The notes beneath the pieces are model-generated. The model did not search any database. It had not been told where the DNA came from and saw only the letters and a program-made list of their open reading frames with translations. Below, piece by piece: positions 1 through 15,523 of a DNA stretch of 64,000 nt (its first letter is position 1; the number at the start of each line of letters is the position of its first letter). Origin of the DNA: Acidobacteriota bacterium (GTDB lineage Bacteria > Acidobacteriota > Vicinamibacteria > Vicinamibacterales > CAVVIG01). The stretch lies in contig JACPZW010000073.1 of assembly GCA_016195265.1 (NCBI GenBank), forward strand, positions 4,798 to 68,797, in the 5' to 3' direction. A program made the position numbers and the translations under genes.

Positions 1-2166
1 GTGCCTGCAGCGAGCCCGTGTCGCGATCGTCGACCTTGACGGTGCGCTCGCTCTCGGGAAACGTGACGAAGTCGACGAGCGCTTCCACGGTCGGCCCGGC
101 CGACTGCGCGGCCGGCGGCTCGGGCCGGGTGCCGTCGATCACGAACGTCGCCACGCCCCACGCGAACGGCAGCGCGAGCGAGCCGCCGGTCACCACGGGC
201 TGACCCGCGTACCAGCACCGGTCGCCAATCACCTGACAGCGCACGCGCACGGCACCCTCGCGCTCGGTCTGCCCGTCGATCCGCGCCCACGTCTTCACGA
301 CGCCTGGGCCGATGGGCTCGATCTGCGGCGTGTCGCGTCCCACGCGCACCACGTCGACCGCCGTCGTGCCGTCCGCCTGCCGGATGGCCGTCCCCGTCGT
401 CAGCTTGGCGGTCGCGCGGGCGTCGAGATGCTGAAAGCGTCCTTCCGCGAACACGACGCCGACCGGCGGCGAGGCCATCTGCACGACCGTGAGCGCCGAG
501 TCGAGACGCGCGACCAGATCGGCCGCCTCGAGCAGCGCGACGTCGTAGACCCCCGGCGGCAGCGACGGCAGATCCAGCTCGGCTTCGTTCGGGTTCTTGA
601 TGAGGTACGCGGCGTCCGGCGGCCGATCGTGGCGATCGAGCAGGACCAGCGCCTGCCCGTGCGGAACGAGGTACGCGTGCAGGTACGGCTTCAAATGCCG
701 GCCGCGCAGCACCACGCGTCCCGGCGCGTAGACCTGGCGCGGCTCGACGGCGTCGGGCCGGGGCGCGGGCGTTCGTAACGCGAGATACAGCAGGGCGCCG
801 ATTGGAAGCGCCAGCAGGAACACGCCGGCCCACGCGTCGATGCGATTGATATTGATCCGCGAGCGTCCACGTTCGATCTGCTGCGAGGCGCCGACGGCGG
901 ACAGCCAGACCGCGAACGGCACGATCGTGTCGCGATGGCGGATCAGCGTGCCGATGTTCCCGCTGTTGACGCCGATCAGCAGCGCGCCCGTGATGACAAA
1001 GCCGCCGAGCACACACGTCAGCAGCGGATCGCGCCGGAGGCCGGCGCGCGCGCCGATCGCGGCGAGCACGATCACCACGTACCAGAGCATCTGCTGCGGG
1101 AGCATCGCGATCTCGGCGCGTCCCCGCAGAATCCACGGCTCGGGCACGGTGAAGAAACGGACGACACTGCGGACCACGAATCCGGCCGTCGCGGCGGGCG
1201 CCAGCGTCTGCGGCCGGACGCCGACGTAGTACTCGTCGCCGAGGAGCCGGAACGAATGTCCGGGCGTCAGCACGTGCCCGATGTGATGGTTCGTCGCGAC
1301 GCGCACGCCGGCGTGCAGCGCCGTGGTCACGGCCGGCACGGTGAAGGCGACGACGCCGGCCGCGACGGCGCCGCACGCGAGCAGGCCGAAAGCCCACCGC
1401 GATCGGACGCCGAGCCAGGCAATCACGCCCACTGCCAGCGCGGCGGCCGTCAGCGTCGCCGCATCGTAGCGCAGGCTGCGAATGGCCAGCAGCGCGGCCA
1501 CGATCGCGACCGCGGCCCACACGCCGCGGTTCCAGGTGCGCGCGCGCAGCGCCATCACCGCCCACACGGCGATCGCCGCCAGCAGGAAATACGGCGCTTC
1601 CTTGAGCGGCGACATCGACCACACGAACAGCGTCGGCAGAACCGTCACGATCAACAGACCGATGAGCGCGGGCCGCGGACCGCAGTGCGCGCGCACGAGC
1701 CTGAACATCAGCACCGCGCCGGCGAAAAACAGCACGGTCGACGCCAGATGTGCGGCGTACGGCGACGGACCGAACACCGTATGGAACGCCGCGAGGACGT
1801 AGTTGTAGCTGCTCCAGCCGTAGGACGCGTCGAACGCTTCGAAGTAGTCGCGCGGCGCGAACGGCTGGCCGGCCAGGGCGTTGCGAATCCATATCGATCG
1901 CTGGAGCATGTACAACGCGTCGCCTCCGGAGAGCGTGGCGAACGATCGCTCGGCCGGTTTCGCGAGGAACGGCAACGCGCCCACCGCGGCCACGCGCGCG
2001 CCGATCGTCACGCACAGCCACGTCACGACCCACTGCCGCTCCTCCCCCCGAGATCGCGCGCCGCCCACACGACCAGCGCGCAGAGCGCCGCCACCATGGC
2101 GAGGCCCGCAGGAGACAGCGTCGCGAACACGCCAAGGATGGCGCCGAGAAGAGTCGCCGGGATCAT
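1..2166 (-). CDS. Module I: polytopic membrane protein (uncharacterised, GT-C-like) fused in-frame to a DUF4330-like/IPT-type domain; 3' end outside window; apparent 1-nt frameshift in the C6 run 2044-2049
   Basis: Absent from the ORF track because no stop lies inside the window. Manual minus-strand translation from ATG 2166 gives MIPATLLGAILGVFATLSPAGLAMVAALCALVVWAARDLGG, then a stop 5 codons later. Shifting one base at the homopolymer continues EERQWVVTWLCVTIGARVAAVGALPFLAKP...GGDALYMLQRSIWIRN...GPSPYAAHLA...SPLKEAPYF...GVNSGNIGTLIRHRDTIVPFAVWLSAVGASQQIERGRSRININRIDAWAGVFLLALPIGALLYLALRTPAPRPDAVEPRQVYAPGRVVLRGRHLKPYLHAYL..., open to base 1. Both halves align with the separate genes 3443-4843 and 2244-3446. 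Confidence 0.6.
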
Positions 2167-2170
2167 GTCG

Positions 2171-2203
2171 GTGGCTGGTGGCTGGTGGCTGGCGGCTGGT
2201 GGC
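2171..2203. repeat. Heptanucleotide microsatellite (GTGGCTG)x4.7
   Basis: gtggctg gtggctg gtggctg gcggctg gtggc, 4 nt upstream (in transcript sense) of ATG 2166. Confidence 0.9.
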
Positions 2204-2243
2204 CCGCCTTAGCGCTGCGCGCTACGGCGAGGCAGGCTGGTAG

Positions 2244-3446
2244 CTACCGCGGAACCGTCACACTCGTAATCGTGCCGCGCACGACGTACGCGTCGGTCTG
2301 AAACACGATCGCTGCGCCGGCCTTGATCACCTGCGAGCGATACGACCAGCCGCCCGCCACTTTCGTGACGGGCACCCGCAGCGTGCACTCGAGGACGCCG
2401 ACCTTCTCCGGGCCGCGCACGGTGCCGTCGATCAAACTCTCGTTCAGCTCGCTCGTCCGCTCGCTGCGGCGCCCCAGCGCGACGATCCGCGCCGGGCTGT
2501 CCCGGTCTCCGCCCGGCGACACGTCAGCGTCCTGCTCGCGGATCAGCGCGAGGACCTCGGGCCGGTCCTGAAGCCGGATCGTCACGCTGGCATTCACGGC
2601 GCGCTCGGGTTCGTCGGGCGCGATTTCGGAGACCACGAAGATCACGGGCGTCCCGCCCGCGTCGGCCTGCACGTTCTTGCCGGGCGCGAGCAGCGCACCG
2701 CCGGGCAGATAGCACTTGAATCCGTCGACGTCGCAGCGGGCGCGCAACTCCGCGCCCACCTGCCAGCGGTTCGTCATTCTCGAGACGATGCTCTTCTCGC
2801 CGGCGTCCAGCCGGACCTCGGCCGGCGCCGGCGGCTTCACGCTCAGAATCTCGCCCCACGACTCGGCGGATCCGCCGGGAAGTCTGGCGCCCGCGGCCAG
2901 CTTGGCGGCCACCTCCTTCGTGAGATTCGTGAAGGCGCCTCGCACGCGCACGACGGCTTTCGGATCGCCGGCGCGCGGCGGCGGCGGCGGCGGCGGATTC
3001 ACCACGACGGCGGCTTCACGCACGGCGACGATGTTCGCTTCATTCTGCAGGATGAAGTCGTAGGTGCCGGGCAGCAGGTTGTCCGGCAGCCGGATCTCGG
3101 CGAGCTGCGGGCTTTCGACGAGGAACCGCGCCTGCGTGTAGTTCACGAGCGCGTAATTGTCGAACGACGTCATCGGATTCAGATCGTGCATCACCGCCGA
3201 CGGCTTGTTCGTGCGCTGCAGGTACAGGCGGAGGTAGGGCAGCAGGTTGTCGCCCTTGACGGCGATGCGAATGTCCGGTCCGGCGGTCACCGTCGAGGGC
3301 GTCAGCGTCGCGATCGTCGGCGCCACCGGCACGCGGAGGATCCGGTAGCCGGCGACCCCGAGCGCCAGCATGATCAGCACGACGACGCCGGCGACGGCGT
3401 CGAAGAGATTGACTCCGCCGAAGAGACGGCCTTCCTGATCGATCAT
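2244..3446 (-). CDS. Module II partner: single-pass membrane-anchored DUF4330-like protein, long form (TM anchor + IPT/Ig-like region + extra C-terminal beta-rich region)
   Basis: Track ORF 2244..3767 trimmed to internal ATG 3446 (MIDQEGRLFGGVNLFDAVAGVVVLIMLALGVAGYRILRVPVAPTIATLTPSTV...). ATGA overlap with the stop of 3443-4843. N-terminal signature and C-terminal GGWSYRSQVIKAGAAIVFQTDAYVVRGTI motif are shared with 9970-10791, 12462-13316 and 13316-14167. Confidence 0.75.
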   Translation of the reverse strand: MIDQEGRLFGGVNLFDAVAGVVVLIMLALGVAGYRILRVPVAPTIATLTPSTVTAGPDIRIAVKGDNLLPYLRLYLQRTNKPSAVMHDLNPMTSFDNYALVNYTQARFLVESPQLAEIRLPDNLLPGTYDFILQNEANIVAVREAAVVVNPPPPPPPRAGDPKAVVRVRGAFTNLTKEVAAKLAAGARLPGGSAESWGEILSVKPPAPAEVRLDAGEKSIVSRMTNRWQVGAELRARCDVDGFKCYLPGGALLAPGKNVQADAGGTPVIFVVSEIAPDEPERAVNASVTIRLQDRPEVLALIREQDADVSPGGDRDSPARIVALGRRSERTSELNESLIDGTVRGPEKVGVLECTLRVPVTKVAGGWSYRSQVIKAGAAIVFQTDAYVVRGTITSVTVPR

Positions 3447-4843
3447 CGCCACGACGCCACCACCTTCTCCGGACGTGGACGAGCCGGCAGGGCGACGAAC
3501 CGCCCGGCCACGGTGACGCCGCCGAAACCGGCGAGCACCAGGACGAACGGCACGATCATGTCGCGATGCCGGATGAGCGTTCCAATGTTGCCGCTGTTGG
3601 GCGCGACGACGACGACGCCGGCGGCGATCATGCCGGCGAGCACCGACGCCAGCAGCGGCTGCCGCCACATGCCGCGAATCCCGCCGGCAATGGCCAGCAG
3701 GACCGCCCCGTACCACAGCACCTGCTGCGGGATCAGCGCGAGCCATTTCATCGAGTCGGCCGCCCACGGCAGCGGCTGCGCGAAGAACATGACGACCGAT
3801 CGAATCAGAAACCGCGTGCCTTCGCCGGGCGTGAGCGCAAACGGCGGGCCGTCGACCGGATCGGTGGACACACCGGCGTAGTACTTGTCATCCACCAGCC
3901 GGTAGTACGCGCCGGGCGATCGCGCATGGCCCAGATGTCTGATCGCGGCGTCCCGCACGCCCGCCGCCAAGGCTTTCTGAACGTAGACGGTCCGCGCGCC
4001 GACGGCGACCCCGCACGCCACCAGCACGAAGGTGACCGCGACGAGCGCGGTACGGCGCGTGGTCGCCCAGAGCACGGCGCCGGCACCGGCGCCCGCCGCG
4101 GCAATCGCGGCGGCGCCGCTGCGCAACGTGCCGCTCATCGCGATCGCGAAGGCGAGCGCCGCGACCGACGAGACCTTCACCGGCCAGCGGCCCTGCACGA
4201 CGCCGACGCTGGCCACGACGGCCGTGGTCAGCAGGAGAAACTGCATGGCCTCCTTGAGCGGCACCACGGACCACGCGAAGACGCTCGGCATGAACAGGAC
4301 GCCGGCGAGACCGGCAAACGCCGCCAGCGGACCGAACGCCCGGCGGCAGCACCGATACAGGAGCGACGCGGCGGTCAGAAACAGCGCGGCGCTGAAGACG
4401 GCGACGCCGTACGGCGAGCGCCCGAACAGGACGTGCAGAAAGGCGAGCACGTAGTTGTACGCGGACCAGCCGAACTGCGGCTCGAACGCCTCGATGTAGT
4501 CGCGTGAGCCGACCGGAATGCCGAGGAAGATGTTGCGGATCCAGATCGATCGCTGGATGGCGTACTGCGCGTCGCCGAAATAGCTGGTGTACGACTGCCG
4601 CTGCGGATCGACGAGAAACGGCAGGACGCCGATGGCCATCATCCGCAACGCGAGCGCCGCGCCGAGCGCGGCGAGCAGCCAGTGCCGCTCGCGGCCGTCG
4701 ATGTCGCGCGCGGTCCAGCGGAACAGCCCGGCCATCCAGATCAGACACACCACCGTCAGCGGCGAGAGGGTGTACGCGACGCCGGCGAGAACCGCCGCAA
4801 GAATGACGAATGGCTGATGGCTGGCTGATGGCTGAGATCGCAT
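3443..4843 (-). CDS. Module II: polytopic membrane protein, uncharacterised GT-C-like family
   Basis: 466-aa ORF with many hydrophobic helices. Motifs: YFGDAQYAIQRSIWIRN (first loop), GRSPYG, PLKEAMQ, C-terminal APNSGNIGTLIRHRDMIVPF. Three paralogues in the window. N-terminus (MRSQPSASHQP) is encoded by a heptamer-type repeat. Confidence 0.8.
   Translation of the reverse strand: MRSQPSASHQPFVILAAVLAGVAYTLSPLTVVCLIWMAGLFRWTARDIDGRERHWLLAALGAALALRMMAIGVLPFLVDPQRQSYTSYFGDAQYAIQRSIWIRNIFLGIPVGSRDYIEAFEPQFGWSAYNYVLAFLHVLFGRSPYGVAVFSAALFLTAASLLYRCCRRAFGPLAAFAGLAGVLFMPSVFAWSVVPLKEAMQFLLLTTAVVASVGVVQGRWPVKVSSVAALAFAIAMSGTLRSGAAAIAAAGAGAGAVLWATTRRTALVAVTFVLVACGVAVGARTVYVQKALAAGVRDAAIRHLGHARSPGAYYRLVDDKYYAGVSTDPVDGPPFALTPGEGTRFLIRSVVMFFAQPLPWAADSMKWLALIPQQVLWYGAVLLAIAGGIRGMWRQPLLASVLAGMIAAGVVVVAPNSGNIGTLIRHRDMIVPFVLVLAGFGGVTVAGRFVALPARPRPEKVVASWR
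4811..4836. repeat. Heptamer-type microsatellite variant (TGGCTGA/TGGCTGG)
   Basis: tggctga tggctgg ctgatgg ctgag. Encodes the first residues (SQPSASHQP) of 3443-4843. Confidence 0.75.
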
Positions 4844-4846: not shown

Positions 4847-5791
4847 TCAGACCTCGAACTTCAGCGCGGTGTCGGCCAGATGCGCTTCGCTCGCGCCGAA
4901 CGCCCGGCGCAGCCGCCGCCACGGCAGCGCCGCGATGTACGCGAGGCTGGCCGGCGACGCCGCGATGCTGCGGAAGGCGTACGCAATCGCCTGGCCGGTA
5001 TTGCCGGCCTCGAGGTGCGATCCGGACAACATGAGATAAAGGTTGGCGTACGCCCGGCGCCGCAGCGGCTGCACTTCGCCGGCAGCCGGATCCGCGAACA
5101 TCTGCGCGAACCCGTGGAGCATGTCGTGCTCGAAGACCTTCACGTTGCGGTGCATGCTGGCCGGCCGCATCCGGTACTGCATCAGCGGCTCGCGGACGAC
5201 GTCGACTTCCCAGTAGCACGCGATGCGCCGCCACATGTCCCAGTCCGCCGCCGTCGACATCTCGGGATCGAACCGGCCGGCCTTGTCGAAGCATTCACGA
5301 CGGACGACCGCGGTGCTGCCGCCGGCCAGGACGACGGTCCCGCGGAGCATCGCGATCTCGCGCAGCACGCGGCCGCGGCGGCCGGTGAAGTTCGTGCCGA
5401 GCGGCCGCAGGCGCTCGTCCACGTACTCGACGGCGCAGTATACGAGGCCGACGGCGGGATTCGCGAACAGCGGCACCTGCTTCGCCAGCTTGTCGGGATG
5501 CCACAGATCGTCGGCGTCGAGGAACGCGACGAGCTCGCCGCGGCTGCGCGCGATGCCGGCGTTGCGCGCGGCCGAGACGCCCTGGTTGGCCTGAGTGACA
5601 ACCTGTAAACGAGCGGGGCCGGCGCGGTCGACGTAGCGCTTCAGGATCTCCAGCGACTCATCGGTCGAACCATCGTCGACGACGATAATCTCGCGGTTCG
5701 TGTACGACTGGCCGAGGACGCTGTCCAGCGCGGCGGCGAGAAATCGCTCGCAGTTGTGGTTCGGCACGACGACGGACACCAGCGGCGTCAC
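4847..5791 (-). CDS. Family 2 glycosyltransferase (GT-A fold)
   Basis: VSVVVPNHNCERFLAAALDSVLGQSY...IIVVDDGSTDES...FLDADDLW. Start set at GTG 5791, which forms a GTGA overlap with the stop of 5788-6585. The track ORF extends to 5893. Confidence 0.8.
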   Translation of the reverse strand: MTPLVSVVVPNHNCERFLAAALDSVLGQSYTNREIIVVDDGSTDESLEILKRYVDRAGPARLQVVTQANQGVSAARNAGIARSRGELVAFLDADDLWHPDKLAKQVPLFANPAVGLVYCAVEYVDERLRPLGTNFTGRRGRVLREIAMLRGTVVLAGGSTAVVRRECFDKAGRFDPEMSTAADWDMWRRIACYWEVDVVREPLMQYRMRPASMHRNVKVFEHDMLHGFAQMFADPAAGEVQPLRRRAYANLYLMLSGSHLEAGNTGQAIAYAFRSIAASPASLAYIAALPWRRLRRAFGASEAHLADTALKFEV

Positions 5792-6585
5792 GCGCGGACT
5801 CCGCGGCAGATTGCGACGAGGACGGGCGCGGCGTCCACGCCCGCGGCCGAGAATTCGTAGTCGTGCTCGGACGGAATCAGCGGATGGCCCCACAGCGCGC
5901 GGCTCAACACGTCGCGAACGGCAGCGGGCGTCCGGTTCAGTACGCGCCAGGTCATCAGCTTCGCCTGCGGGCCCAGCGTGCGCGGCATGCGCTGCTGGTC
6001 GTCCCAGAACGGCGACACCGCAAAACGCGAGCTGAGCGCCTGGCCGAGTAGTTCGACCTGCGCGAACCGGCGGCCCAGCTCGACCCTGAATTCCGCGGGG
6101 TCGTACTCGTGCACGTGAAACGGGTTGCGCGGTGTGCCGTCAACAGGCCGCGTGTAGTTCGCGTTCGGCGTCGACATGACGCAGACGCCTTCGGGCGCGA
6201 GCACGCGCCGCACTTCGCGGACGAAGCCGGCGCGATCGCGCAGATGCTCGATGGTCTCGAAGGAGGTCACGACGTCCCAGGCGGCGTCGGGAAACGGCAG
6301 CCGGCACGCGTCCGACCGGACGACGGCGGCGCTGCGATCGGACATCGTTGTCGCGGCCGAGCGCGCGGTCTTGAGCGCGTCGAAATCGGCGTCGGCGCCG
6401 ACGACGGCGCGCGCGGATCCCGCGAGGAGCGCGAGACCGTAGCCTGTGCCGCAGGCGACGTCCAGAATGCGGCGCTGCTCGACGAACGGCCGCGCGAACA
6501 AGTAGCGCGAGGCATGAACGCCCCACCACGGCGACTCGCGCCGCGTCGCGGGATCGATCGCCGGTTCGTGGCGTTCGACGGTCAT
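5788..6585 (-). CDS. Class I SAM-dependent methyltransferase
   Basis: ILDVACGTGYGLALLA (motif I), VVTSFETIEHL, LAPEGVCVMSTPN. Start trimmed to ATG 6585 (MTVERHEP) because the first 21 codons of the track ORF lie in repeat element A. Confidence 0.8.
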   Translation of the reverse strand: MTVERHEPAIDPATRRESPWWGVHASRYLFARPFVEQRRILDVACGTGYGLALLAGSARAVVGADADFDALKTARSAATTMSDRSAAVVRSDACRLPFPDAAWDVVTSFETIEHLRDRAGFVREVRRVLAPEGVCVMSTPNANYTRPVDGTPRNPFHVHEYDPAEFRVELGRRFAQVELLGQALSSRFAVSPFWDDQQRMPRTLGPQAKLMTWRVLNRTPAAVRDVLSRALWGHPLIPSEHDYEFSAAGVDAAPVLVAICRGVRA

Positions 6586-6626
6586 GCAGCGGACAGCGGC
6601 GAGGAGAGCGCAGACAAGGATGAAAA

Positions 6627-6902
6627 GGCCACAGAGACACCGGGACACAGAGGCGCGCTGCAGATTCGGCGGGTCGGCCTGCCTCGCAGGCCGACCCGCA
6701 GCGCCGGATCGGACCGAGACGCGAACCTCGGATCAACCAACATTGGTTCGTGTCTCGGTCCGACTCCGGCGACGCCGCCGCTTCGCGGCGCCCGCCGAAT
6801 CTCGTTCACCGCGCTGATCGTGCGCGTTCTCACGCCGTCTCTTCTCGGTGTCTCCGTGTCTCCGTGGCCAATTTCCCTCCGTGGCCTCCGTGTCCTCCGT
6901 GG
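6627..6902. repeat. Structured palindromic intergenic element, copy A (core inverted relative to copies B and D)
   Basis: Inner inverted repeats GGCCACAGAGACACCGGGACAC / GTGTCTCCGTGTCTCCGTGGCC. Core 6661-6803: closing stem CAGATTCGGCGGG/CCCGCCGAATCT enclosing three hairpins (TCGGCCTGC-ctc-GCAGGCCGA; a ~25-bp stem CCGGATCGGACCGAGACGCGAACC...GGTTCGTGTCTCGGTCCGACTCCGG; CGCCGC-ttc-GCGGCG). Right outer flank is a CCTCCGTGG-type repeat. Confidence 0.8.
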
Positions 6903-6904
6903 TT

Positions 6905-8809
6905 TCATCTTGCACTCGCGAGGGCCGCCTGCGGCGAAGCGGCGGCGGCCTGCTCGGTTTTCAGGAACACGTAGTCCTCCATGACCAGCACGTCCATGTG
7001 CGTCTTCATGAAGCAGCGGTACGCGTCCTCCGGCGTGCAGACGATCGGCTCGTCCTTCACGTTGAACGACGTGTTCACGATGACGGGACAGCCCGTGTTC
7101 CGGAAAAACGCCTCGATGATGTCGTAATACAGCGGGTTCGTTTCGCGGCGGACGGTCTGGATGCGCGCCGAATAGTCGACGTGCGTCACCGCCGGAATCT
7201 GCGAGCGCACGACGTTCAGCTTCTCGATGCCCCACCGCTGCTCGTCGGCCGCGGTCGGTGTCACACGACGCTCGGGCTTCACGCCGGCGACGAGGAGCAT
7301 GTACGGGCTCTCCTCGTCCAGCTCGAACCATTCATTCACGTGCTCGCGCAGGACCGCCGGCGCGAACGGCCGGAACGACTCGCGGAACTTGATCTTCAGA
7401 TTGAGCACCGACTGCATCTTGGGTGAGCGCGCGTCGCCGATGATCGACCGGCCGCCGAGCGCGCGCGGACCGAACTCCATCCGGCCCTGGAACAGTCCGA
7501 TCACTTTCTCGTCGGCGAGACATGCGGCGACGCGCGTCGCCAGCTCCGCCCGGGGCACGCGCTCGCCCATCACGCCGCGGCTCCTCATCCACGCGGCGAT
7601 CTCCTCGTTCGAGAACTTCGGGCCGAGCAGACCGGCCTGCATGGCGTCGTCGTAGACCGGGACATTCTTTCCAGGTACGCGCGCCGGCACAGAAGTCTTC
7701 CCCACTGCTGCGCCAGCCGGCACCCACGTGCCCCTGCGTTCGGCGCTCTCGCGCGGCTGACCAAGGTACCGATGCCAGATCGCGTACGCGACGCCCAGTG
7801 CGCCGCCCGCGTCGCCCGACGCCGGCTGAATCCAGAGATGACGGAACGGCCCTTCACGCAGGATGCGCCCGTTGCCGACGCAGTTGAGCGCGACGCCGCC
7901 CGCCAAGCAGAGCCGATCGAGGCCGGTCTCGCGGTGCGCCGTCCGCGCCATGCGCAGCATGATCTCCTCGGTCACGTCCTGCACGGAGCGCGCGAGATCC
8001 ATTTCGCGCTGCGTGACGGGCGCGTCGGGATCGCGGCGCGGCCCGCCGAACAGCCGCTCGAAACCGTCGCCGGTCATCGTCAGGCCGCGATGGAACGTGA
8101 AGCTCTCGAGATTCAGCCGGATGCTGCCGTCGTCGGCGATGTCGATCAGGTGATCGCGGATCGCCGTGACGTACTTCGGCTCGCCGTACGGCGCGAGCCC
8201 CATGATCTTGTATTCGCCTTCGTTGACCTTGAAGCCGGTGAAGTAGGTGAAGGCGGAGTACAGCAGCCCGACCGAGTGCGGGAACTGCGTCTCCTTGATC
8301 ATCGTCAGGTCGTGGCCGCGACCGGCGCCGATCGACGAGGTCGTCCACTCGCCGACGCCGTCGATCGTGAGGATTGCCGCTTCTTCAAAGGGCGATGGAT
8401 AAAACGCCGAGGCCGCGTGCGATTCATGATGGTCGCCGAACAGGATCGTCTGCTTGGTGCCGAGCGCCTTCTGGATTTCGGTGGCCTGCCACAGCTTTTC
8501 GCCGAGCCAGAGCGGCATCGCCATCATGAACGGACGGAACCCGCGCGGCGACACGGCGATGGACGTCTCGAGCAATCGATCGAATTTGACGAGCGGCTTC
8601 TCGTAGAACGCGACGTGTGCGACCTGGTCAATCGTGATCCCGGCTTCGCGCAGACAGTACGCGACCGCGTTCGACGGGAACGCGGCGTCGTGCTTCTTGC
8701 GCGTGAACCGTTCCTCCTGCGCCGCGCCGACGATCCGGCCGTCGCGCAGCAGGCACGCGGCCGAGTCGTGATAGTAGGCGGAGAGGCCGAGGATGTAGGT
8801 GGGGCTCAT
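6905..8809 (-). CDS. Carbamoyltransferase, NodU/CmcH (SxtI-like) family
   Basis: MSPTYILGLSAYYHDSAACLLRDGRIVGAAQEERFTRKKHD... typical Carbam_trans N-terminus, 634 aa. Start at internal ATG 8809. Confidence 0.85.
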   Translation of the reverse strand: MSPTYILGLSAYYHDSAACLLRDGRIVGAAQEERFTRKKHDAAFPSNAVAYCLREAGITIDQVAHVAFYEKPLVKFDRLLETSIAVSPRGFRPFMMAMPLWLGEKLWQATEIQKALGTKQTILFGDHHESHAASAFYPSPFEEAAILTIDGVGEWTTSSIGAGRGHDLTMIKETQFPHSVGLLYSAFTYFTGFKVNEGEYKIMGLAPYGEPKYVTAIRDHLIDIADDGSIRLNLESFTFHRGLTMTGDGFERLFGGPRRDPDAPVTQREMDLARSVQDVTEEIMLRMARTAHRETGLDRLCLAGGVALNCVGNGRILREGPFRHLWIQPASGDAGGALGVAYAIWHRYLGQPRESAERRGTWVPAGAAVGKTSVPARVPGKNVPVYDDAMQAGLLGPKFSNEEIAAWMRSRGVMGERVPRAELATRVAACLADEKVIGLFQGRMEFGPRALGGRSIIGDARSPKMQSVLNLKIKFRESFRPFAPAVLREHVNEWFELDEESPYMLLVAGVKPERRVTPTAADEQRWGIEKLNVVRSQIPAVTHVDYSARIQTVRRETNPLYYDIIEAFFRNTGCPVIVNTSFNVKDEPIVCTPEDAYRCFMKTHMDVLVMEDYVFLKTEQAAAASPQAALASAR

Positions 8810-8840
8810 GAGAGGGCTAAGGGCTGGAAAAACGTTCGTC

Positions 8841-8875
8841 CAGCCACCAGTCACAGCCACCAGCCACCAGCCACC
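8841..8875. repeat. Heptanucleotide microsatellite (CAGCCAC)x5, opposite orientation to the other copies
   Basis: cagccac cagtcac agccac cagccac cagccac, in the spacer between 8879-9037 and 6905-8809. Confidence 0.9.
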
Positions 8876-8878
8876 TGA

Positions 8879-9037
8879 TCAAAAGAGTGAATAGATAAAC
8901 GGCGCCACGGCGCTGCTCTGCGCGAAGACGAGCAGCAGGCCGAGCAGGATCAGCACGACCGCGATCGGCGCGAGCCAGTACTTCTTTTCCTGCTTGAGAA
9001 AATCCCAGAACTCTCCAAGAACGGATCGTTGAGCCAT
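8879..9037 (-). CDS. Small single-TM protein, DUF5989 / SxtK-like
   Basis: 52 aa: MAQRSVLGEFWDFLKQEKKYWLAPIAVVLILLGLLLVFAQSSAVAPFIYSLF. This matches my recollection of the DUF5989 consensus and sits in the usual position beside a carbamoyltransferase. Confidence 0.7.
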   Translation of the reverse strand: MAQRSVLGEFWDFLKQEKKYWLAPIAVVLILLGLLLVFAQSSAVAPFIYSLF

Positions 9038-9045
9038 GCCAAACC

Positions 9046-9447
9046 TCAGTACAGATGATCGAAGTGTTTCGGATCCCGCAAGCGCGGCGGCGCCGGCACC
9101 CAGGACGGCGGCGCGGCGCGCCAGCGGCGGCCGAGACGGTCCCGGCCGGCGAGACGCTGAATCACGCCGTACGGCGTGATGATCAGGAAGAAGAAAATCG
9201 ACAGCAGGATCCGGCTGTTCACCCAGCCGAGCGCGCGCGCAAACTTCATCCACACGCGATTCGGCGCGTCGAACAGGCGCGGCGCCGCCCACGCCACGAT
9301 GAGGAAGAACGCCGCCGCCGCCGCGAACGCTTCGGCCGCGGTCATGCGTCCGCGCCACAGCCGGTGCGCGGCCAGGGCGACGCACAAACCGCCGAACGCG
9401 ATGCCGAACGATCGGCCGCCCTTCCCGGGTGTGTCGACTACTGCCAT
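9046..9447 (-). CDS. SxtJ-like small membrane protein
   Basis: 133 aa from internal ATG 9447: MAVVDTPGKGGRSFGIAFGGLCVALAAHRLW...NSRILLSIFFFLIITPYGVIQRLAGRD. Canonical neighbour of the carbamoyltransferase/DUF5989 pair. Confidence 0.65.
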   Translation of the reverse strand: MAVVDTPGKGGRSFGIAFGGLCVALAAHRLWRGRMTAAEAFAAAAAFFLIVAWAAPRLFDAPNRVWMKFARALGWVNSRILLSIFFFLIITPYGVIQRLAGRDRLGRRWRAAPPSWVPAPPRLRDPKHFDHLY

Positions 9448-9968
9448 GGCTGAGGCTCGCGCAGCAGACGCCGCACCCACGGCCGCCGGTTCGCCCACGC
9501 GGCAACGACGCCGTGCGACCAGAACGCCGGCACGCCGGCGATCACCAGAAACGAGATCCACGTCGCCCACGTCGGCCAGCCCACCGGCTCGCCGAACGCG
9601 ACGACGAGCGCGACGTGAGTCACGGTCGCGACCACCACGGCCCAGGCGATCAACCGGACCTGCTCCGCGGCCGGCTGGGATCGAAATTCTCTCGCCGTCG
9701 GCTCGAGCCAGCCGCGCAGCGCCGACGACCGCCACGCCCGCGGCGGGACGTCGATCGCAGCGTCGATCAGGCGGACCAGCCGGCTGCCGGCGAGCACGTC
9801 GCGGACGCGGGCTTCTTCGTCTGGATCGATGGGCGTCGATCGCGCGCGGCCCGCGGCCGCATCCACGCGCTGTACCTGCGTGGCGACCTGCCGCGCGGCG
9901 CGGCCGAAGGTCTGCCACACGCCGGCAATCGCCCGGTACACGATGCTGGTTTTCAATACGTTCGGCAT
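9438..9968 (-). CDS. Hypothetical membrane protein (two C-terminal TM helices)
   Basis: 176-aa ORF with ATG start, 1 nt after the stop of 9970-10791. Non-shadow amino-acid composition. Hydrophobic segments VRLIAWAVVVATVTHVALVVAF and WATWISFLVIAGVPAFW. No family recognised. Confidence 0.55.
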   Translation of the reverse strand: MPNVLKTSIVYRAIAGVWQTFGRAARQVATQVQRVDAAAGRARSTPIDPDEEARVRDVLAGSRLVRLIDAAIDVPPRAWRSSALRGWLEPTAREFRSQPAAEQVRLIAWAVVVATVTHVALVVAFGEPVGWPTWATWISFLVIAGVPAFWSHGVVAAWANRRPWVRRLLREPQPWQ

Positions 9969-9969: not shown

Positions 9970-10791
9970 TCACTTCCCTCCGCCGGCCGCGGCGGCAGAC
10001 GCCGCCGCCGGCAGTTCCGACACGCGCTCGATCACGCCGTAGATGCGGTAGCGCTCCGTCTCGAAGAGGAGTGTCTCGCCCGCGCGCAGCCACTCCCCTT
10101 TGTATTCCCAGCCGCCGAGCCCTCGCGTTTTCGCCGGGATGCGCACGGTGGCGTCGAAGGCGGCGCCCGGCATGTGCGCGTGCAGGGTGATAAAGGTGAC
10201 TGCGTCCTTGACCGGCCGCACGGGACCCATGGTCGCCAGTTCGCCCGGCGTCAGGACGCTGGCGCCGGCCTGCTCCCAGCGATCGCGATCGCCTTCCTTC
10301 ACGAACGGCGCCGTCTCGGGCGGCACGACGAATCGCACGACCGCTTCGACGGTCACGCGCGGCAGCGGCGCGAGCGTGAACGCCGCCTGGAACGACGCCA
10401 CCTCCTGCGCTTCGTCGTACAGATGGATGTCGTACGTGCCGGCGTCGGCGGCAGTCGGGAGCGCCAACTCGACTTCGTCCGGCGTGACGATCAGGAACGT
10501 CCCCTGCATCGCGTCCATCGGCAGGCGGCCGTTCAGGGAGTACGGCTCGCCGGTCTTCGCGATGAACGCGCCGAGGTACGGACGGAAGTGCTTGCCCGTG
10601 AGGCGCACGCGCCGCGGCGTCTCCGGCGTGAGCGTGCGCGGCGTGACGCTGAGAATTTCCGGGGGCGGAATGCGGAAGACCCGGTACGCGACGTAGCTCA
10701 TCGGCACGAGGACGATCACGAATGCCGCCACGGCGGCATCGACGAGATTGAGACGTCCGAGCAGTTTTCCGCGGGAGTCAATCAATGGCAT
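9970..10791 (-). CDS. Module III partner: membrane-anchored DUF4330-like / IPT-type protein, short form
   Basis: MPLIDSRGKLLGRLNLVDAAVAAFVIVLVPMSYVAYRVFRIPPPEILSVTPRTL...RLTGKHFRPYLGAFI...GTYDIHLYDE...GGWEYKGEWLRAGETLLFETERYRIYGVI. Start at ATG 10791; the upstream track start lies in repeat element B. Confidence 0.75.
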   Translation of the reverse strand: MPLIDSRGKLLGRLNLVDAAVAAFVIVLVPMSYVAYRVFRIPPPEILSVTPRTLTPETPRRVRLTGKHFRPYLGAFIAKTGEPYSLNGRLPMDAMQGTFLIVTPDEVELALPTAADAGTYDIHLYDEAQEVASFQAAFTLAPLPRVTVEAVVRFVVPPETAPFVKEGDRDRWEQAGASVLTPGELATMGPVRPVKDAVTFITLHAHMPGAAFDATVRIPAKTRGLGGWEYKGEWLRAGETLLFETERYRIYGVIERVSELPAAASAAAAGGGK

Positions 10792-10796
10792 AAGTT

Positions 10797-11130
10797 GGCC
10801 ACGAAGCCACGAAGTCACGAAGAAGAAGGGGAATAAGCCACAGAGATCACTGAGACACAGAGGCGCGCGACCAGATTCGGCGGTCGCCGCGAAGCGGCGA
10901 CACCGCCGGAATCGGGCCGAGACGCGAGCCGTGGACCGGCAAACGCTGGCTCGCGTCTCGGCCCGATCCGGCGGTGGTCGTCGGCCTGCACGGCAGGCCG
11001 ACCCGCCGAATCTCGGTGAGCGCGCGGCGATCGACTGGATTCACGCTCTTCCTCCGTGCCTCTGTGCCTCTGTGGCCCATTTCCCTCTGCGCCCTCCGTG
11101 GCCTCCGTGGCCTCCGTGGCCTCCGTGGCC
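10797..11130. repeat. Structured palindromic intergenic element, copy B
   Basis: Left flank (CCACGAAG)n + GCCACAGAGATCACTGAGACACAGAGG. Core 10872-11014: CAGATTCGGCGG/CCGCCGAATCT closing TCGCCGC-gaa-GCGGCGA, a ~29-bp stem and GTCGGCCTGC-acg-GCAGGCCGAC. Right flank CCTCCGTGCCTCTGTGCCTCTGTGGCC + (GGCCTCCGT)x4. Fills the gap between 11141-12460 and 9970-10791. Confidence 0.8.
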
Positions 11131-11140
11131 TCAGTTGGTT

Positions 11141-12460
11141 TCAATCCGGACGAGGCACGAGCGTGTTCAGCACGGACGTGAAGCCTGCGGCGCTCAGCAG
11201 GGCCAGGGCGGGGACGACCATGTCGCGATGACGGACGAGGGTGCCGATGTTGCCGCTGTTGGGCGCGATGACGGCGACGCCCGCGGCCACCGACGCGAGC
11301 AGGATCCACGTCACGAGCGGGTCGCGCCTGAATCCGGCCACGACGCCGGGGATTCCGAGCAGCACCAGCATGTACCACGCCATCTGCTGCGGCAGGTACG
11401 CGAGCCCCGACCGCGACTCGATCTGCCACGGCGCCGGCACAGTGAAAAACGCCACCGCCGCGCGGCCGAGAAAGCGGACGGCTTCGGCGGGCTCGAGCGT
11501 GCGGGCGATGCGCGACCCATAGGAATAGAAGCGCTGGTCGAGCACTTTGTACCCGTACCCGTTGCTCGCCACGTGCCCGATCTGGCGATCGGCCGCGGCC
11601 CGCACGACGCTCATGGCCTGCTCCTGGACGAACGGCCGCGAGACCACCGCGGCGCCGGCCGCAACGCAAAGCACGCCGCTCGTCACCGCGACCCACGACC
11701 GCCGCGTCAGCATCCACGCCAGGACGCCCGCGACCGCGCCGGACACGGCGACGTACACCGCCGCGGACCGCAGCGTCATGAGCGCGTAGCCCGTGGCCGC
11801 CGCGAGCATCGCTGCGGCGATGCGCGCCCGCCACGTCCGCGACCGCACGGCGCGGAGCGTGAACGCGACGAGAAACGCCGCCAGCGCGAACTGCATCGAC
11901 TCCTTGAGCATCGACACCGACCACGCGAACGTGGACGGCCAGAACAGCAGCCACGCGAGGCCGACGAGCGCCGCAGGCGGACCGAAGCTCTGCCGCGCGA
12001 TCCGGAAGAGCGCGATCGCCCCCGCGAGAAACGCGGCGATGCTGACGAAATTCAGCGCGTAGGGCGACGGCCCCGTGATCATCTGAATGGCGCCGAGGAT
12101 GTAGGAGTACGACGTCGCGCCGTACGGGTTGTACAGGATGTACTCGTACATCGGGCCGATTGGGACATCCAGCCAGATGTTGCGAATCCATCCCGCGCGC
12201 GCGATGGCGAACTGCGCGTCGGGAAAGTAAGTATTGAAATGCTGCGCCGGCGTCGTCGTCAGCAGCAGCGCGCCGACCGCCGCCACACGGAGCCCGGTCG
12301 CGGCGCCCAGCAGCCCGAAAACCCAGCGCCGCTCCCACGCATCGAGCCCTCGAGCGGCCCACCACCAGAGCAGCATCGCCACCAGCGCGAAGAGCACCGC
12401 GAGAGGCGAGACCGTGAACGCCACTCCCGCGAGCGCGCCGGCGGCACACCACATCAGCAT
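11141..12460 (-). CDS. Module III: polytopic membrane protein, uncharacterised GT-C-like family
   Basis: MLMWCAAGALAGVAFTVSPL...YFPDAQFAIARAGWIRN...GPSPYA...MLKESMQ...APNSGNIGTLVRHRDMVVPA. Start set at ATG 12460, 1 nt after the stop of 12462-13316. Confidence 0.8.
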   Translation of the reverse strand: MLMWCAAGALAGVAFTVSPLAVLFALVAMLLWWWAARGLDAWERRWVFGLLGAATGLRVAAVGALLLTTTPAQHFNTYFPDAQFAIARAGWIRNIWLDVPIGPMYEYILYNPYGATSYSYILGAIQMITGPSPYALNFVSIAAFLAGAIALFRIARQSFGPPAALVGLAWLLFWPSTFAWSVSMLKESMQFALAAFLVAFTLRAVRSRTWRARIAAAMLAAATGYALMTLRSAAVYVAVSGAVAGVLAWMLTRRSWVAVTSGVLCVAAGAAVVSRPFVQEQAMSVVRAAADRQIGHVASNGYGYKVLDQRFYSYGSRIARTLEPAEAVRFLGRAAVAFFTVPAPWQIESRSGLAYLPQQMAWYMLVLLGIPGVVAGFRRDPLVTWILLASVAAGVAVIAPNSGNIGTLVRHRDMVVPALALLSAAGFTSVLNTLVPRPD

Positions 12461-12461: not shown

Positions 12462-13316
12462 TCAGTCGCGGCTCCCGGCCCGATCCTCGGGAGCGCGGCG
12501 CACCACGCTGACGCGCGTGATGAAACCATTCGCAACCCAGTCCGATGTCGCGAATGCGAACATCTCACCGGCGCGGACCGGGCGCGTGCCGTCGAGCCAG
12601 ACGCCGAGATTCTTCACGACGCCGACGCGCACGACCGCCTCGATCCGGATTTGCGGAGGCGAGACCGAGGCCCCCAAGATCCCCTCCGGCGAGACCCCGA
12701 AGCCAATCGGGCGGTGAGGCGCGGGCAGCCGCCGCAGTGAGATCACGGTCGCGGGTTCCGAGGCTCGTCTGGCGCTCGGGCCCAGGTCCACGTCGCCGAC
12801 GTGTATTAGAGATGCCACGGTCTCATCGACGTCGAACCGGATCGCGATCTCAAGGACGGCCTTCTCGACCGGCGCCTCTGGCGCATAGGCTTCCGGCGTC
12901 ACGACCGTGAAGGCCGACAGGCGCCTGGCGACTTCGCGGCCCTCGTCGTAGAGATAGAGATCGTACACGCCCGGTGCCATCTTGGGCAGTCGCAACTCGG
13001 CGACGGTCGGACGCTCGAGGAGAAACGCCGCCTCGTTGGGGTTTGTCGGCGGATCCACGAACGGGGGCGCCTGGCCAGCCGCCGCGACGTACGCGTGGAG
13101 ATAGGGACGCAGGTTGCGGCCTTCGAGACGAAGCACCTGATCGCCGCCGACGCGGACGGTTCCTGGATCGATCTTCACAATCTCTGGCGACGGCACGCGA
13201 AACACTCGGTAGGTGGCGAGGCCGACGGGCAATAAGAAAAGGATGACAAGCAGCGCCGAGGCGTCCACCAGGTTCACGCGCCCGAACAACCGGCCCTTGT
13301 CGTCGAGAATCGGCAT
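12462..13316 (-). CDS. Module IV partner 2: membrane-anchored DUF4330-like / IPT-type protein
   Basis: MPILDDKGRLFGRVNLVDASALLVILFLLPVGLATYRVFRVPSPEIVKIDPGTVRVGGDQVLRLEGRNLRPYLHAYV...GVYDLYLYDEGREV. TGATG junction with 13316-14167. Confidence 0.8.
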   Translation of the reverse strand: MPILDDKGRLFGRVNLVDASALLVILFLLPVGLATYRVFRVPSPEIVKIDPGTVRVGGDQVLRLEGRNLRPYLHAYVAAAGQAPPFVDPPTNPNEAAFLLERPTVAELRLPKMAPGVYDLYLYDEGREVARRLSAFTVVTPEAYAPEAPVEKAVLEIAIRFDVDETVASLIHVGDVDLGPSARRASEPATVISLRRLPAPHRPIGFGVSPEGILGASVSPPQIRIEAVVRVGVVKNLGVWLDGTRPVRAGEMFAFATSDWVANGFITRVSVVRRAPEDRAGSRD

Positions 13317-14167
13317 CAGCGTCGGGCCGTCCCGCGGGACACATCCGCAACGCGGGCGGTCCGCGTCACCATGCCCCGAAGCACGTAGGTCGGCGTCACA
13401 AACGTGAACAGCTCCCCCACCCGAATCGGGACGTTGTTATAACCCCACACGCCCTGGCGCTTCACGACGCCGAGGCGCACGACGGCGTCGTACCGGTGCA
13501 AGGCCGGCATCAGCGGCAGCGTCGTGCCGGTCGGAAGGATCGGTCGCAGTGTCTCCCCGGCCTCCGGCGCGGGCCGCCAGGACACCAGCGACGCCGCGAG
13601 CTGCATGGGCGTGTCGTTCGCCGGCTGATTGATGTCGGTGTCGCCCACGTGCACGGACGGCACGACATCGGCATCGACGGAGAACCGGACGTGGATGTCG
13701 AACGTCGCCACCTCATCGATCGGCGTGACCGGCGTCGGCACGGCGGGAGGCGTCAGCGCGAACGCGGACTCGCGATGAGCCACTTCGCGGCCCTCGTCGA
13801 ACAAATACAGATCGTACAGGCCGGCGCGCAAGCCGCGGGGCAGCTTCAATTCGATCGCGGTTGGTGTCGCGATCAAATAGTTCGCCCGCTGATCGTCGTG
13901 CAGATCCTCGGGCCACAGATGCGCTCCCGCCGGTGACACATACGCGCGCAGGAACGGCCTGAAGTGTTCGCCCGTCACGCGAACCTCGAGCGGACCGTCG
14001 GCGGCCAGCCTCGCGGGCGTGATCGTTGTCATGATCGGCGCCGGCACGCGCAACACCCGGTAGGCGACGAAGGCCATGGGGACGACGAGCAGCACGAACG
14101 CCACGGCCGCGGCGTCCATGACATTGAAGCGCCCCTTCACACGGCCGCGCACGTCACCACCGCCCAT
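13316..14167 (-). CDS. Module IV partner 1: membrane-anchored DUF4330-like / IPT-type protein
   Basis: MGGGDVRGRVKGRFNVMDAAAVAFVLLVVPMAFVAYRVLRVPAPIMTTITPARL...VRVTGEHFRPFLRAYV...GLYDLYLFDEGREV. Start directly abuts the stop of 14168-15523. Confidence 0.8.
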   Translation of the reverse strand: MGGGDVRGRVKGRFNVMDAAAVAFVLLVVPMAFVAYRVLRVPAPIMTTITPARLAADGPLEVRVTGEHFRPFLRAYVSPAGAHLWPEDLHDDQRANYLIATPTAIELKLPRGLRAGLYDLYLFDEGREVAHRESAFALTPPAVPTPVTPIDEVATFDIHVRFSVDADVVPSVHVGDTDINQPANDTPMQLAASLVSWRPAPEAGETLRPILPTGTTLPLMPALHRYDAVVRLGVVKRQGVWGYNNVPIRVGELFTFVTPTYVLRGMVTRTARVADVSRGTARR

Positions 14168-15523
14168 TCAGGCCCACACTCTTGCGGCGGGATACAGCCC
14201 GGCGGCGGCCAGCCACACGATGGCCGGCACGATCATGTCGCGATGGCGCACGAGTGTCCCGGTATTCCCGCTGTTCGGCGCGATGATCAACATGCCGGCG
14301 AAGACGAAGCCGACCAACATCGCGGTCACGAGCGCGTCGCGGCGCGCGGCCGCGGTGAAGCCGATCAGCGTCAGAAGGAGCAGCGCGTACCATGCGCACT
14401 GCTCCGGCAACATCGCCAGCCCGGACGCCGAGTCCAGCTGCCACGGGAGCGGCACGGTGAAGAAGGCGACCATCGACCTGAGCATGAACCGGATGCTCTC
14501 GTCGGTGGTGATCGTGTCCACCGAGCGCGGCCCTTCGGCATAAAAGCGGTCGTCGAGCAGCCGGAACGATCCGCCCGGTGTCTCAACGTGACCGAGGTGG
14601 CGGCCGGCGGCCAGTTGCACTTCCTGGCCGACGCGCGCGCGGACCGCCGTGTCCCTCGTCAGCAGCAGGACGGCGGCGACGGCTCCGCACACGACGAGAG
14701 CGGCGACCCACCACCGCAACGTAATCAGCCGCAGGGCCAGGCCGAGCGCGAGCCCCGCGGCAACGACCACAAGTCCGTCCGCGCGAAGCGTCGTCAGGAC
14801 GTACACGACGCCGCCGACGACGAGGGCGGCCTGGGCGCGTTCGGTCCAGCGCCGCCCGCGCAGAAGGGCGACGATCGACACGGTCAGCGCCGCCATCAGC
14901 AGGAGCTGCACCGCCTCACGCAGCGTCGACAGCGACCAGGCGAAGAGCGTGGGCCAGAACAAAAGGAGGATCAGCCCCGCGCCAGCAGGCCACGGACCAT
15001 ACGCGCGCCGAGCCAGCCGGAACAACAGCAGAGCCCCGCCGATAAAGCTCGCGACGCTGATGAGATTGATACCGTAGGGCGCGGCGCCGACGACGAGCTG
15101 GATCAACGCCAGAATCGTGTGGAACGAGGAGGCCCCGTAGGAGTTGTAAATCTGGCGGTACTGATCCGGAGAGATTGGCACGTGCCGCCAGTGGTTGAGA
15201 ATCCACCAGGAGCGCTCGGTCGCGAAGACCGCGTCAGGAAAGTACGCCCGGAACTGCTGGCGCAACGGGTCGGTCGCCACGAGCAGGGCCGCGATCGCCG
15301 CGACGCGCGCGACGATCGCAACAACGAGCGCCGACGTCACCCATCGCCGCTCACGGACGCCGAGGCCGCGCACGCCCCAGCGGCAGAGCGGCACGATGCC
15401 CAGAATGAACACGACCGTCAGCGGCGACCAGGTGTACGCGAGGCCGAGCGCCACGCCCGCGATCGCCGCGCGGCGCGCGAGACGTGTCAGCGCAGGATCT
15501 CCTCGACGTCGGGCGCGAGCCAT
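14168..15523 (-). CDS. Module IV: polytopic membrane protein, uncharacterised GT-C-like family
   Basis: ...IAGVALGLAYTWSPL...YFPDAVFATERSWWILN...GAAPYG...TLREAVQ...APNSGNTGTLVRHRDMIVPA. Start uncertain: ATG 15523 overlaps the upstream gene by 37 nt, and the track ORF runs to 15703. Confidence 0.75.
   Translation of the reverse strand: MARARRRGDPALTRLARRAAIAGVALGLAYTWSPLTVVFILGIVPLCRWGVRGLGVRERRWVTSALVVAIVARVAAIAALLVATDPLRQQFRAYFPDAVFATERSWWILNHWRHVPISPDQYRQIYNSYGASSFHTILALIQLVVGAAPYGINLISVASFIGGALLLFRLARRAYGPWPAGAGLILLLFWPTLFAWSLSTLREAVQLLLMAALTVSIVALLRGRRWTERAQAALVVGGVVYVLTTLRADGLVVVAAGLALGLALRLITLRWWVAALVVCGAVAAVLLLTRDTAVRARVGQEVQLAAGRHLGHVETPGGSFRLLDDRFYAEGPRSVDTITTDESIRFMLRSMVAFFTVPLPWQLDSASGLAMLPEQCAWYALLLLTLIGFTAAARRDALVTAMLVGFVFAGMLIIAPNSGNTGTLVRHRDMIVPAIVWLAAAGLYPAARVWA

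Follow-up and report, generated by a model that had tools for sequence, protein, structure and literature searches.

A remote GT-C family paired with DUF4330 proteins forms a reiterated array in an acidobacterial glycan cluster

Within the first 15,523 nucleotides of a 64,000-nt stretch of acidobacterial DNA (contig JACPZW010000073.1 of assembly GCA_016195265.1, positions 4,798 to 68,797; hereafter the window), one arrangement occurs four times: a polytopic membrane protein paired with one or two membrane-anchored, Ig-like partners. What is the membrane protein, what does the partner contribute, and why is the pair reiterated? A first-pass annotation, made from the letters alone, had recognised the four modules, placed the membrane protein in no known family and proposed that each pair works as one unit in an undescribed device acting on extracytoplasmic glycans. 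We find that the membrane protein is related to the GT-C glycosyltransferases, that the partner belongs to DUF4330 (PF14221), and that the two adjoin one another in nearly all loci surveyed and have been fused repeatedly. We propose that the module is probably a multi-subunit, periplasm-facing glycosyltransferase whose Ig-like, acceptor-binding subunit is supplied in trans.

All four modules lie on the minus strand, which holds nearly all genes from 1 to 50 kb of the window (~69% G+C). Module II consists of a GT-C core of 466 aa (3443..4843) and a partner of 400 aa (2244..3446), joined by an ATGA overlap. The core of module IV (14168..15523, 451 aa) is followed by two partners in tandem, IVa (13316..14167, 283 aa) and IVb (12462..13316, 284 aa), and then by the core of module III (11141..12460, 439 aa), with junctions of 0 or 1 nt throughout. 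The reading frames of modules II, III and IV translate without stops, and these frames and junctions are as first described. Overlooked at that stage was the separation of the module III core from its partner (9970..10791, 273 aa), which is 349 nt wide and filled by a repeat element; this pair is not tightly coupled. Module I joins a core (872..2166) in frame to a partner domain (2..871). The partners of modules I and II are of a long form with an extra domain of ~120 aa, and those of modules III and IV are of a short form.

The modules are paralogous, as had been proposed, with the four cores 40-41% identical and the five partners 30-35% identical, which is far beyond chance. Profile hidden Markov models (HMMs) of the two families match exactly these places in the window, at E ~1e-133 to 1e-172 for the cores (module I, 5e-133; module IV, 6e-170) and 1e-85 to 1e-171 for the partners (module I, 1.5e-95; IVa, 9e-91). 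The partner HMM matches only five places, all adjoining a member of the new GT-C family. The motifs noted at first sight also held up: D-A..R..WI.N, G..PY, L(K/R)E and NSGNxGTLxRHRD are invariant in the four membrane proteins, and the N-terminal G(R/K)..G..N..DA, a single transmembrane helix and the C-terminal G.W....G..F.T..Y..G are conserved in the five partners.

The view that the membrane protein belongs to no recognised family was not borne out by Pfam and Foldseek searches, which place it in the GT-C/PMT_2 superfamily as a remote member. In Pfam the core matches PMT_2 (PF13231, GT-C clan; cut-off 26.1 bits) and no other family. Modules I (28.0 bits) and III (34.6 bits) score above the cut-off, module II (19.6 bits) scores below it, and the module IV core alone has no Pfam match. 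Half of a set of 30 unfused family members (15) also match PMT_2, at E<=0.01, and no other Pfam family. The core has no Wzy_C or STT3 match in Pfam, Wzy_C being absent at E<=1 from the four paralogs and the 30 family members. NCBIfam has no model for either the core or the partner family, and NCBI annotates a member of the GT-C family as 'hypothetical protein'. The family is sizeable, with 498 clusters (50% identity) at E<=1e-30, rising to 1774 when the threshold is relaxed to E<=1e-10; its members come mainly from Acidobacteriota, with some from Acidimicrobiia, Dehalococcoidia and Cyanobacteriota, and nearly all from uncultured genomes.

Predicted structures agree with this placement. AlphaFold2 models of the module II core alone (pLDDT 87.8, pTM 0.87) and of a fused homologue, P0002 (pLDDT 88.2, pTM 0.75), were compared with solved structures by Foldseek. 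The top ranks for the fused protein were ArnT, AftA and AglB, and those for the core alone were STT3, ArnT, AglB, AftB, ALG9 and PglB. All are GT-C enzymes, and for the top hits of both models the Foldseek probability was 0.9-1.0. From the Pfam matches and these models, we conclude that the membrane protein is a predicted GT-C-fold glycosyltransferase remote from every solved or curated family. The earlier suspicion that its acidic first-loop motif resembles the loops of GT-C proteins is correct, given this identity.

The same rankings bear on the main rival explanation, in which the GT-C protein acts en bloc, as a transferase, ligase or polymerase comparable to oligosaccharyltransferase (OST), WaaL or Wzy. 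It would draw on an oligosaccharide-pyrophosphate-lipid donor made by adjacent cytoplasmic glycosyltransferases, with DUF4330 as a co-polymerase or a chain-length- or acceptor-presenting subunit. STT3/OST subunits are the best Foldseek hits of the core alone, and FtsW is also among the hits, weakly (probability 0.54), both in favour of this explanation. However, the sole kinship at the sequence level is with PMT_2, which is of the ArnT/PMT type with monosaccharide-phosphate-lipid donors, and neither Wzy_C nor STT3 is matched in Pfam. We regard the en-bloc reading as unlikely, and return to it below with the gene neighbourhoods.

Charge counts over the family alignment suggest how the core sits in the membrane. 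Its first large loop, which is net acidic, carries D91 (module II numbering), invariant in 30 sequences; D83 is invariant in the four paralogs. Alternating short loops are rich in K/R and free of acidic residues. We infer that the loops with all conserved motifs are periplasmic and that the short K/R-rich loops are cytoplasmic, which would place the C-terminus of the core in the cytoplasm. This fits both the partner, with its N-terminus inside, one transmembrane helix and the remainder outside, and the fused form.

The assignment of the partner to DUF4330 (cut-off 27.6 bits) was confirmed for modules II (38 bits), III (29 bits) and IVb (35.1 bits); IVa scores below the cut-off (18 bits) and the fused part of module I has no match. 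Canonical DUF4330 proteins score 124-141 bits, and the matches here cover mostly the N-terminal 30 residues, that is, the motif and transmembrane helix (133 residues in module II). These residues, a G-R-x-F-G-R-x-N-x-x-D-A motif followed by the single helix, are the most conserved part of the partner, and a search with the motif also retrieves haloarchaeal and Bacillota DUF4330 proteins. Downstream of the helix the partner is predicted to be all-beta (residues 471-807 of the fused P0002 model). Its first domain resembles the TIG domain of CAMTA1 (2CXK; target-normalised TM-score, TMt, 0.71, root-mean-square deviation 2.8-3.0) and the C-terminal domain of the NFAT Rel homology domain (TMt 0.65-0.71). 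An IPT/TIG-like pattern had been read from the sequence; the fold bears this out, whereas Pfam TIG (PF01833) is not matched at E<=1. Other Foldseek hits of the partner portion include Ig-like proteins that bind glycans, such as CGTase and SGBP-B.

To ask how regularly the two proteins occur together, we examined 70 GT-C loci from species-representative genomes. The partner lies downstream on the same strand in 64 of the 70, and in 62 it starts no more than ~110 nt after the GT-C gene; in two Dehalococcoidia loci a third component, described below, sits between the two. Six loci are exceptions and lack a partner: one is acidobacterial, and the other five hold distant homologues (22-27% identity) from Nitrospinota, Deltaproteobacteria and one unclassified bacterial metagenome-assembled genome (MAG). 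A reverse survey started from the partner, whose N-terminal motif was searched for as a degenerate DNA pattern. Of the bacterial loci retrieved, 47 had a full-length partner and sufficient sequence ahead of it, and in all 47 a GT-C gene lies directly upstream (count read from the scan). The partner also follows a GT-C or a fused GT-C in all six metagenome contexts examined, one of which, from Vicinamibacterales, has the two genes by themselves with no glycan cluster around them. Together with recurrent fusion, this adjacency supports across genomes the proposal that the pair works as one unit.

Fusion first came to attention in module I, where the junction between core and partner is an open frame, as claimed. 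A single frame spanning 1-2166 had been claimed as well, and this proved wrong. The frame opened by the ATG at 2166 differs from that of the long open reading frame (ORF), 2..2041, and ends after 47 codons, the first 41 of which encode the first transmembrane helix (..TLSPAG..AARDLGG). This helix is encoded by 2044-2166, and the long frame resumes at a conserved ERQW. Adding one G to the run of six at 2044-2049 (minus strand) joins the frames and yields the conserved ...ARDLGG-E-ERQWVV. The run is 1 nt short (a -1 frameshift) relative to orthologues, all of which are intact at that point. The N-terminal piece gives a separate match to the GT-C HMM at 2026-2208, and the catalytic membrane domain as a whole occupies 872..2166. 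A public gene call on the same contig, P0001 (764 aa), begins downstream of the frameshift; judged by its length, module I extends past the window edge, with ~85-90 C-terminal residues outside.

A search with the repaired module I protein retrieved at least 12 homologues that are likewise fused and 796-825 aa long (P0002-P0011, P0016, P0025). They share 30-63% identity with the query across 80-99% of its length and have a conserved linker, ...QQIERG...N.(I/V)D.W. We therefore reject the possibility that the fusion is an assembly artefact: module I is a true Rosetta-stone fusion with conserved fused orthologues. Among 97 representatives (those, of the 150 best matches, that span the GT-C profile), the core is fused to the partner in eight, and same-ORF fusions occur in genome loci L008, L012, L018 (twice), L043 and L055. 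Since the C-terminus of the core is predicted to be cytoplasmic, a fusion would need exactly the transmembrane helix that the partner brings, and module I and its orthologues have it.

The frameshift itself may have arisen in assembly, as a homopolymer error, or be a recent inactivating or slippage mutation. Were it the latter, module I could be a decaying pseudogene and the array partly a relic of duplication lacking four distinct functions, because the G6 frameshift takes the first transmembrane helix, including an invariant S-P, out of the main frame. We consider this very unlikely. The remaining frame of 680 codons is intact, with high G+C at third codon positions (0.88), and the orthologues are intact and syntenic one to one. 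Single-base homopolymer errors are moreover a common assembly artefact, and several loci in long-read MAGs give split hits resembling module I.

A third component was likewise overlooked at first. The gene at 9438..9968 (minus strand) starts 1 nt past the stop of the module III partner and encodes 176 aa with two C-terminal transmembrane helices. Its product has no Pfam family, and a single-sequence phmmer search with it against the representatives returned nothing. When the C-terminal extensions carried by GT-C fusions were made into an HMM, it matched four small proteins: this one (37.9 bits) and proteins of 117-179 aa that follow the partner in loci L001, L005 and L006. Of the 70 genome loci, 32 have the component, placed either behind the partner or in the space separating GT-C and partner. 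In 17 of the 97 representatives (about 18%) it forms a C-terminal extension of the GT-C itself. Because partner and third component have each been fused to the core independently, both accessory proteins are tied to it.

Small proteins with a weak resemblance to the third component accompany canonical DUF4330 in haloarchaea (Halorubrum, Halorientalis, Halomarina and others; L122 4300-6052, L152 3028-4768, L139 5937-7249). There the DUF4330 gene is followed, with a 4-nt overlap, by a gene for a two-transmembrane-helix protein of 184-217 aa carrying a RWLTAEPDPDVIVIDLRET motif, which in Halorientalis weakly matches the bacterial third component (24 bits). No GT-C of the new family was found near these pairs. 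Since the haloarchaeal pair occurs without GT-C, the DUF4330 and two-helix proteins may form an older module with its own function.

The array is conserved as a whole. Its order, module IV with two partners, module III, the third component, SxtJ/DUF5989, a carbamoyltransferase, a methyltransferase, a GT2, module II and the fused module I, is syntenic one to one with that of a Terriglobia MAG. Identity to the Terriglobia orthologues is 67-72% for the GT-C cores, 52-60% for the partners, 64% for the third component and 79-86% for the cytoplasmic enzymes. Orthologues at 67-72% identity, against paralogs at ~40%, indicate that the duplications are old and that each module has been maintained. In the orthologous loci the fused gene is followed by an additional DUF4330 gene, at a position that here falls outside the window. 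Elsewhere the usual form is a single copy behind two or three tandem, same-strand GT4 genes (45/70 loci, L011-L070), and the commonest operon order is GT4-GT4-GT4, GT-C, DUF4330 and a two-transmembrane-helix protein.

The faster evolution of the partners relative to the enzymes invites another explanation, namely that the DUF4330 proteins are not subunits at all and serve as dedicated acceptors: membrane-anchored surface proteins O-glycosylated by a cognate PMT-like enzyme. Protein O-mannosyltransferases are among the relatives of PMT_2, the partners are extracytoplasmic and Ig-like, one (module II) has a Pro-rich linker, and DUF4330 is found elsewhere without a GT-C. However, enzyme and 'substrate' have been fused in frame repeatedly, in several lineages, which is hard to square with turnover. 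The strongest conservation in the partner lies in its cytoplasmic motif and transmembrane helix rather than in an exposed Ser/Thr-rich region, and the third protein is fused to the GT-C in the same way. We give the acceptor explanation little credence.

Under the subunit reading, which we favour, the core of ~450 aa would be a GT-C-fold catalytic subunit of about 11 helices, remote kin of ArnT and PMT. Its donor would be a sugar linked to a polyprenyl phosphate (or pyrophosphate) lipid on the outer side of the inner membrane, and its acceptor an envelope glycan under construction. Catalysis or acceptor activation may fall to the invariant Asp in the loop 'GDA..R..WIRN', and the LKE and NSGNxGTLxRHRD motifs may form the site for the donor phosphate. 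From a cytoplasmic N-terminus and one transmembrane helix, the partner would extend a TIG-like and one or two further beta domains into the periplasm, where they would bind and select the acceptor glycan, as domains of EmbA-C, AftD and GT136 ORF12 do in cis. The small protein encoded at 9438-9968 would be part of the same complex, and the four anciently diverged modules would add different sugars or linkages in succession to the polysaccharide of the cluster. A bolder form of this proposal, possible rather than probable, is that the complex is the first bacterial GT-C holoenzyme with obligate non-identical subunits, composed of a core, one or two DUF4330 proteins and the two-helix protein. Its pairs would be co-diversified and module-specific, reiterated in Acidobacteriota as arrays of four or five that build a complex envelope polysaccharide wholly outside the membrane, and GT-Cs would have recruited the DUF4330 and two-helix pair, an older and independent module found in haloarchaea too.

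Several observations weigh against the subunit reading. The likeness of the models to solved GT-C structures is remote (Foldseek E 2.5e-3 to 0.4; query-normalised TM-score, TMq, <=0.46), and an hhalign comparison of the family profile with a PMT_2 protein of the same window reached 27.7% probability, in the PMT_2 core region. Sequence searches of the PDB with the GT-C and partner profiles returned nothing meaningful, and so no match for the core. The other GT-Cs of the window that consist of transmembrane segments only (two PMT_2-type and two GT87-type) have no DUF4330 neighbour, so that the lack of a periplasmic domain does not by itself demand a partner. Canonical DUF4330 proteins exist in haloarchaea and Bacillota without this GT-C, from which it follows that DUF4330 has a function independent of it. 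In one study the carbohydrate-binding module (CBM) of GT136 ORF12 was dispensable for activity (PMC11127046). Finally, no GtrB-like synthase was seen near the commonest, GT4-rich operon, and an en-bloc donor (an oligosaccharide-pyrophosphate-lipid) is therefore equally possible there.

This last point also counts for the en-bloc rival, as two or three GT4 genes lie directly upstream in 45/70 loci where no GtrB-like GT2 was detected. In the window, four specialised paralogs together with GtrB-like GT2s fit stepwise addition of single sugars (compare Emb, Aft and Mpt) better than they fit four ligases. The GT2s concerned, at 23351-24307 (-) and 52230-53471 (+), have C-terminal transmembrane helices, one with ...LGLLGEYVWRI. 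These features are typical of polyprenyl-phosphate sugar synthases of the GtrB/ArnC/DPM1 type and make both GT2s candidate donor suppliers. They are ~8 kb and ~35 kb distant, with no GtrB-like synthase adjacent to the array. The GT2 at 4847-5893 was considered for this role and rejected, as it lacks a transmembrane helix and is closest, among PDB entries, to soluble GT2s. No GtrA, SMR or MATE flippase was identified among the window ORFs scanned.

How does the proposed enzyme compare with known systems? It shares with the ArnT/PMT_2 enzymes (PF13231; ArnT, 5EZM/5F15) a polytopic GT-C fold, the sole Pfam family matched, a TMq of 0.46 to ArnT and an acidic residue in the loop after an early transmembrane helix (compare 'YDEVGRH' of a PMT_2 protein in the window). 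It differs in that sequence similarity is marginal (0-35 bits; hhalign 28%), that it has a motif set of its own (NSGNxGTLxRHRD), and that its ~450-aa core, composed of transmembrane segments only, always travels with, or needs, a DUF4330 partner. Systems of the GtrA/GtrB/Gtr*, ArnC/ArnEF/ArnT and GT136 types likewise combine a lipid-phosphate donor made in the cytoplasm with a GT-C acting outside, and candidate GtrB-like GT2s are present here. Unlike in those systems, no flippase was identified, the neighbours are GT4s or a carbamoyltransferase/methyltransferase/GT2 trio rather than a GtrA/GtrB pair, and the three components are a core, an Ig-like subunit and a two-helix subunit. Assembly of phosphatidylinositol mannosides, lipomannan, lipoarabinomannan and arabinan in mycobacteria offers a parallel of another kind: GT4 steps (PimA, PimB) are followed by serial, paralogous GT-Cs (PimE, Mpt, Emb, Aft), and AftA, AftB and PimE are among the Foldseek hits of the new family. 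The GT-C families nevertheless differ, no inositol-lipid genes were seen, and the hosts here are Acidobacteriota and similar phyla.

The pairing of one catalytic membrane protein with a separate accessory protein has precedent in eukaryotes, where in PIG-M/PIG-X and OST a GT-C catalytic subunit works with an obligatory non-catalytic, single-pass membrane partner bearing a lumenal or extracytoplasmic domain. To our knowledge no bacterial counterpart of a pairing of the PIG-M/PIG-X type has been described; no homology is implied by the comparison.

The closest analogues in domain composition are EmbA/B/C, AftD and GT136 ORF12, in which an Ig-like CBM after the last transmembrane helix of the GT-C binds the acceptor polysaccharide (PMC11127046). 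A GT-C core with a beta-rich, Ig-like periplasmic module is the layout that module I and P0002 share with them. Here, by contrast, the Ig-like part is usually a separate gene with its own membrane anchor and conserved cytoplasmic N-terminal motif, there are up to two partner copies per core plus a third, two-helix subunit, and no sequence similarity between those CBMs and the DUF4330 partners was found. The first-pass claim of an undescribed device stands to that extent: the family and its pairing in trans have no match in the searchable literature, whereas Ig-like or CBM domains on a GT-C are known in cis (PMC11127046). In the searchable full-text literature we found no mention of DUF4330 or PF14221 and no match for a pairing of GT-C with DUF4330. 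New here are the GT-C family, its obligate DUF4330 subunit encoded in trans, the third subunit and the reiterated array. The elements themselves, GT-C core and Ig-like acceptor module, are known, and they are combined in a split, multi-subunit and reiterated form.

These results define a GT-C family of considerable size whose members go under 'hypothetical' in standard annotation, with a pairing that recurs in many soil-bacterial genomes, and they supply a first functional context for DUF4330. They also suggest that bacterial GT-Cs can be multi-subunit, like eukaryotic OST or PIG-M/PIG-X. Acidobacteriota are dominant soil bacteria whose envelopes and exopolysaccharides are poorly understood, and a reiterated periplasmic assembly line would give a handle on acidobacterial glycan chemistry and a source of new glycosyltransferase specificities.

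The surroundings of the array fit the glycan-building, extracytoplasmic role first proposed for it, as does GT-C identity. The window is a very large (60-kb) glycan cluster encoding DegT aminotransferases, UDP-glucose dehydrogenase, epimerases, GT2 and GT4 enzymes and an ABC-2 permease. The modifying enzymes said to be interleaved with the modules are present: a GT2, an S-adenosylmethionine (SAM) methyltransferase, a carbamoyltransferase and two SGNH hydrolases. Upstream of module II, a conserved cytoplasmic trio occupies 4847..8860 (-) and consists of the carbamoyltransferase (6905-8860), the SAM methyltransferase (5788-6648) and the soluble-type GT2 (4847-5893). The trio is 79-86% identical and syntenic in the Terriglobia MAG and occurs also in L006, L018, L051 and L052. 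Genes for NeuB, a CMP-sugar cytidylyltransferase, a HAD phosphatase, an aldehyde dehydrogenase, an SDR and a transketolase-like protein lie at 32856-37494 (-); this set is of the nonulosonic-acid type and points to an unusual acidic sugar in the predicted glycan. The four further GT-Cs, at 26400-27800 (-), 50953-52233 (+), 54141-55406 (+) and 55420-56742 (+), are ~420-466 aa long and consist of transmembrane segments only.

A carbamoyltransferase, DUF5989 and SxtJ-family small membrane proteins stand together at 6905-9450 (-), within the glycan locus, and are kept in the syntenic MAG. This set is presumably an SxtI/SxtK/SxtJ-like trio of the kind found in saxitoxin clusters.

The gap in module III is occupied by a nested palindromic repeat element (10792..11140), with tandem 9-mers (GGCCACGGA x4), inverted copies at the opposite end and, in its centre, a hairpin of 36 nt. 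Four other sites, mostly in intergenic DNA, hold related runs of 9-mers (6876-6904, 22163-22182, 62636-62655, 62928-62947); the 9-mer has 9 matches against 0.01 expected. In the Terriglobia MAG the orthologous gap is only ~62 nt, against 349 nt here. An Rfam search of the window returned nothing. The element looks like a miniature inverted-repeat transposable element (MITE) or a repetitive extragenic palindromic (REP) sequence. Short tandem peptide repeats (GRATAV x5; APGTS/APGTQHH) were also noted in the maximal ORFs of two GT2s, at the C-terminal end of 19111-20784 (-) and at both ends of 37496-38674 (-), where they probably reflect repetitive DNA between genes and not real protein tails.

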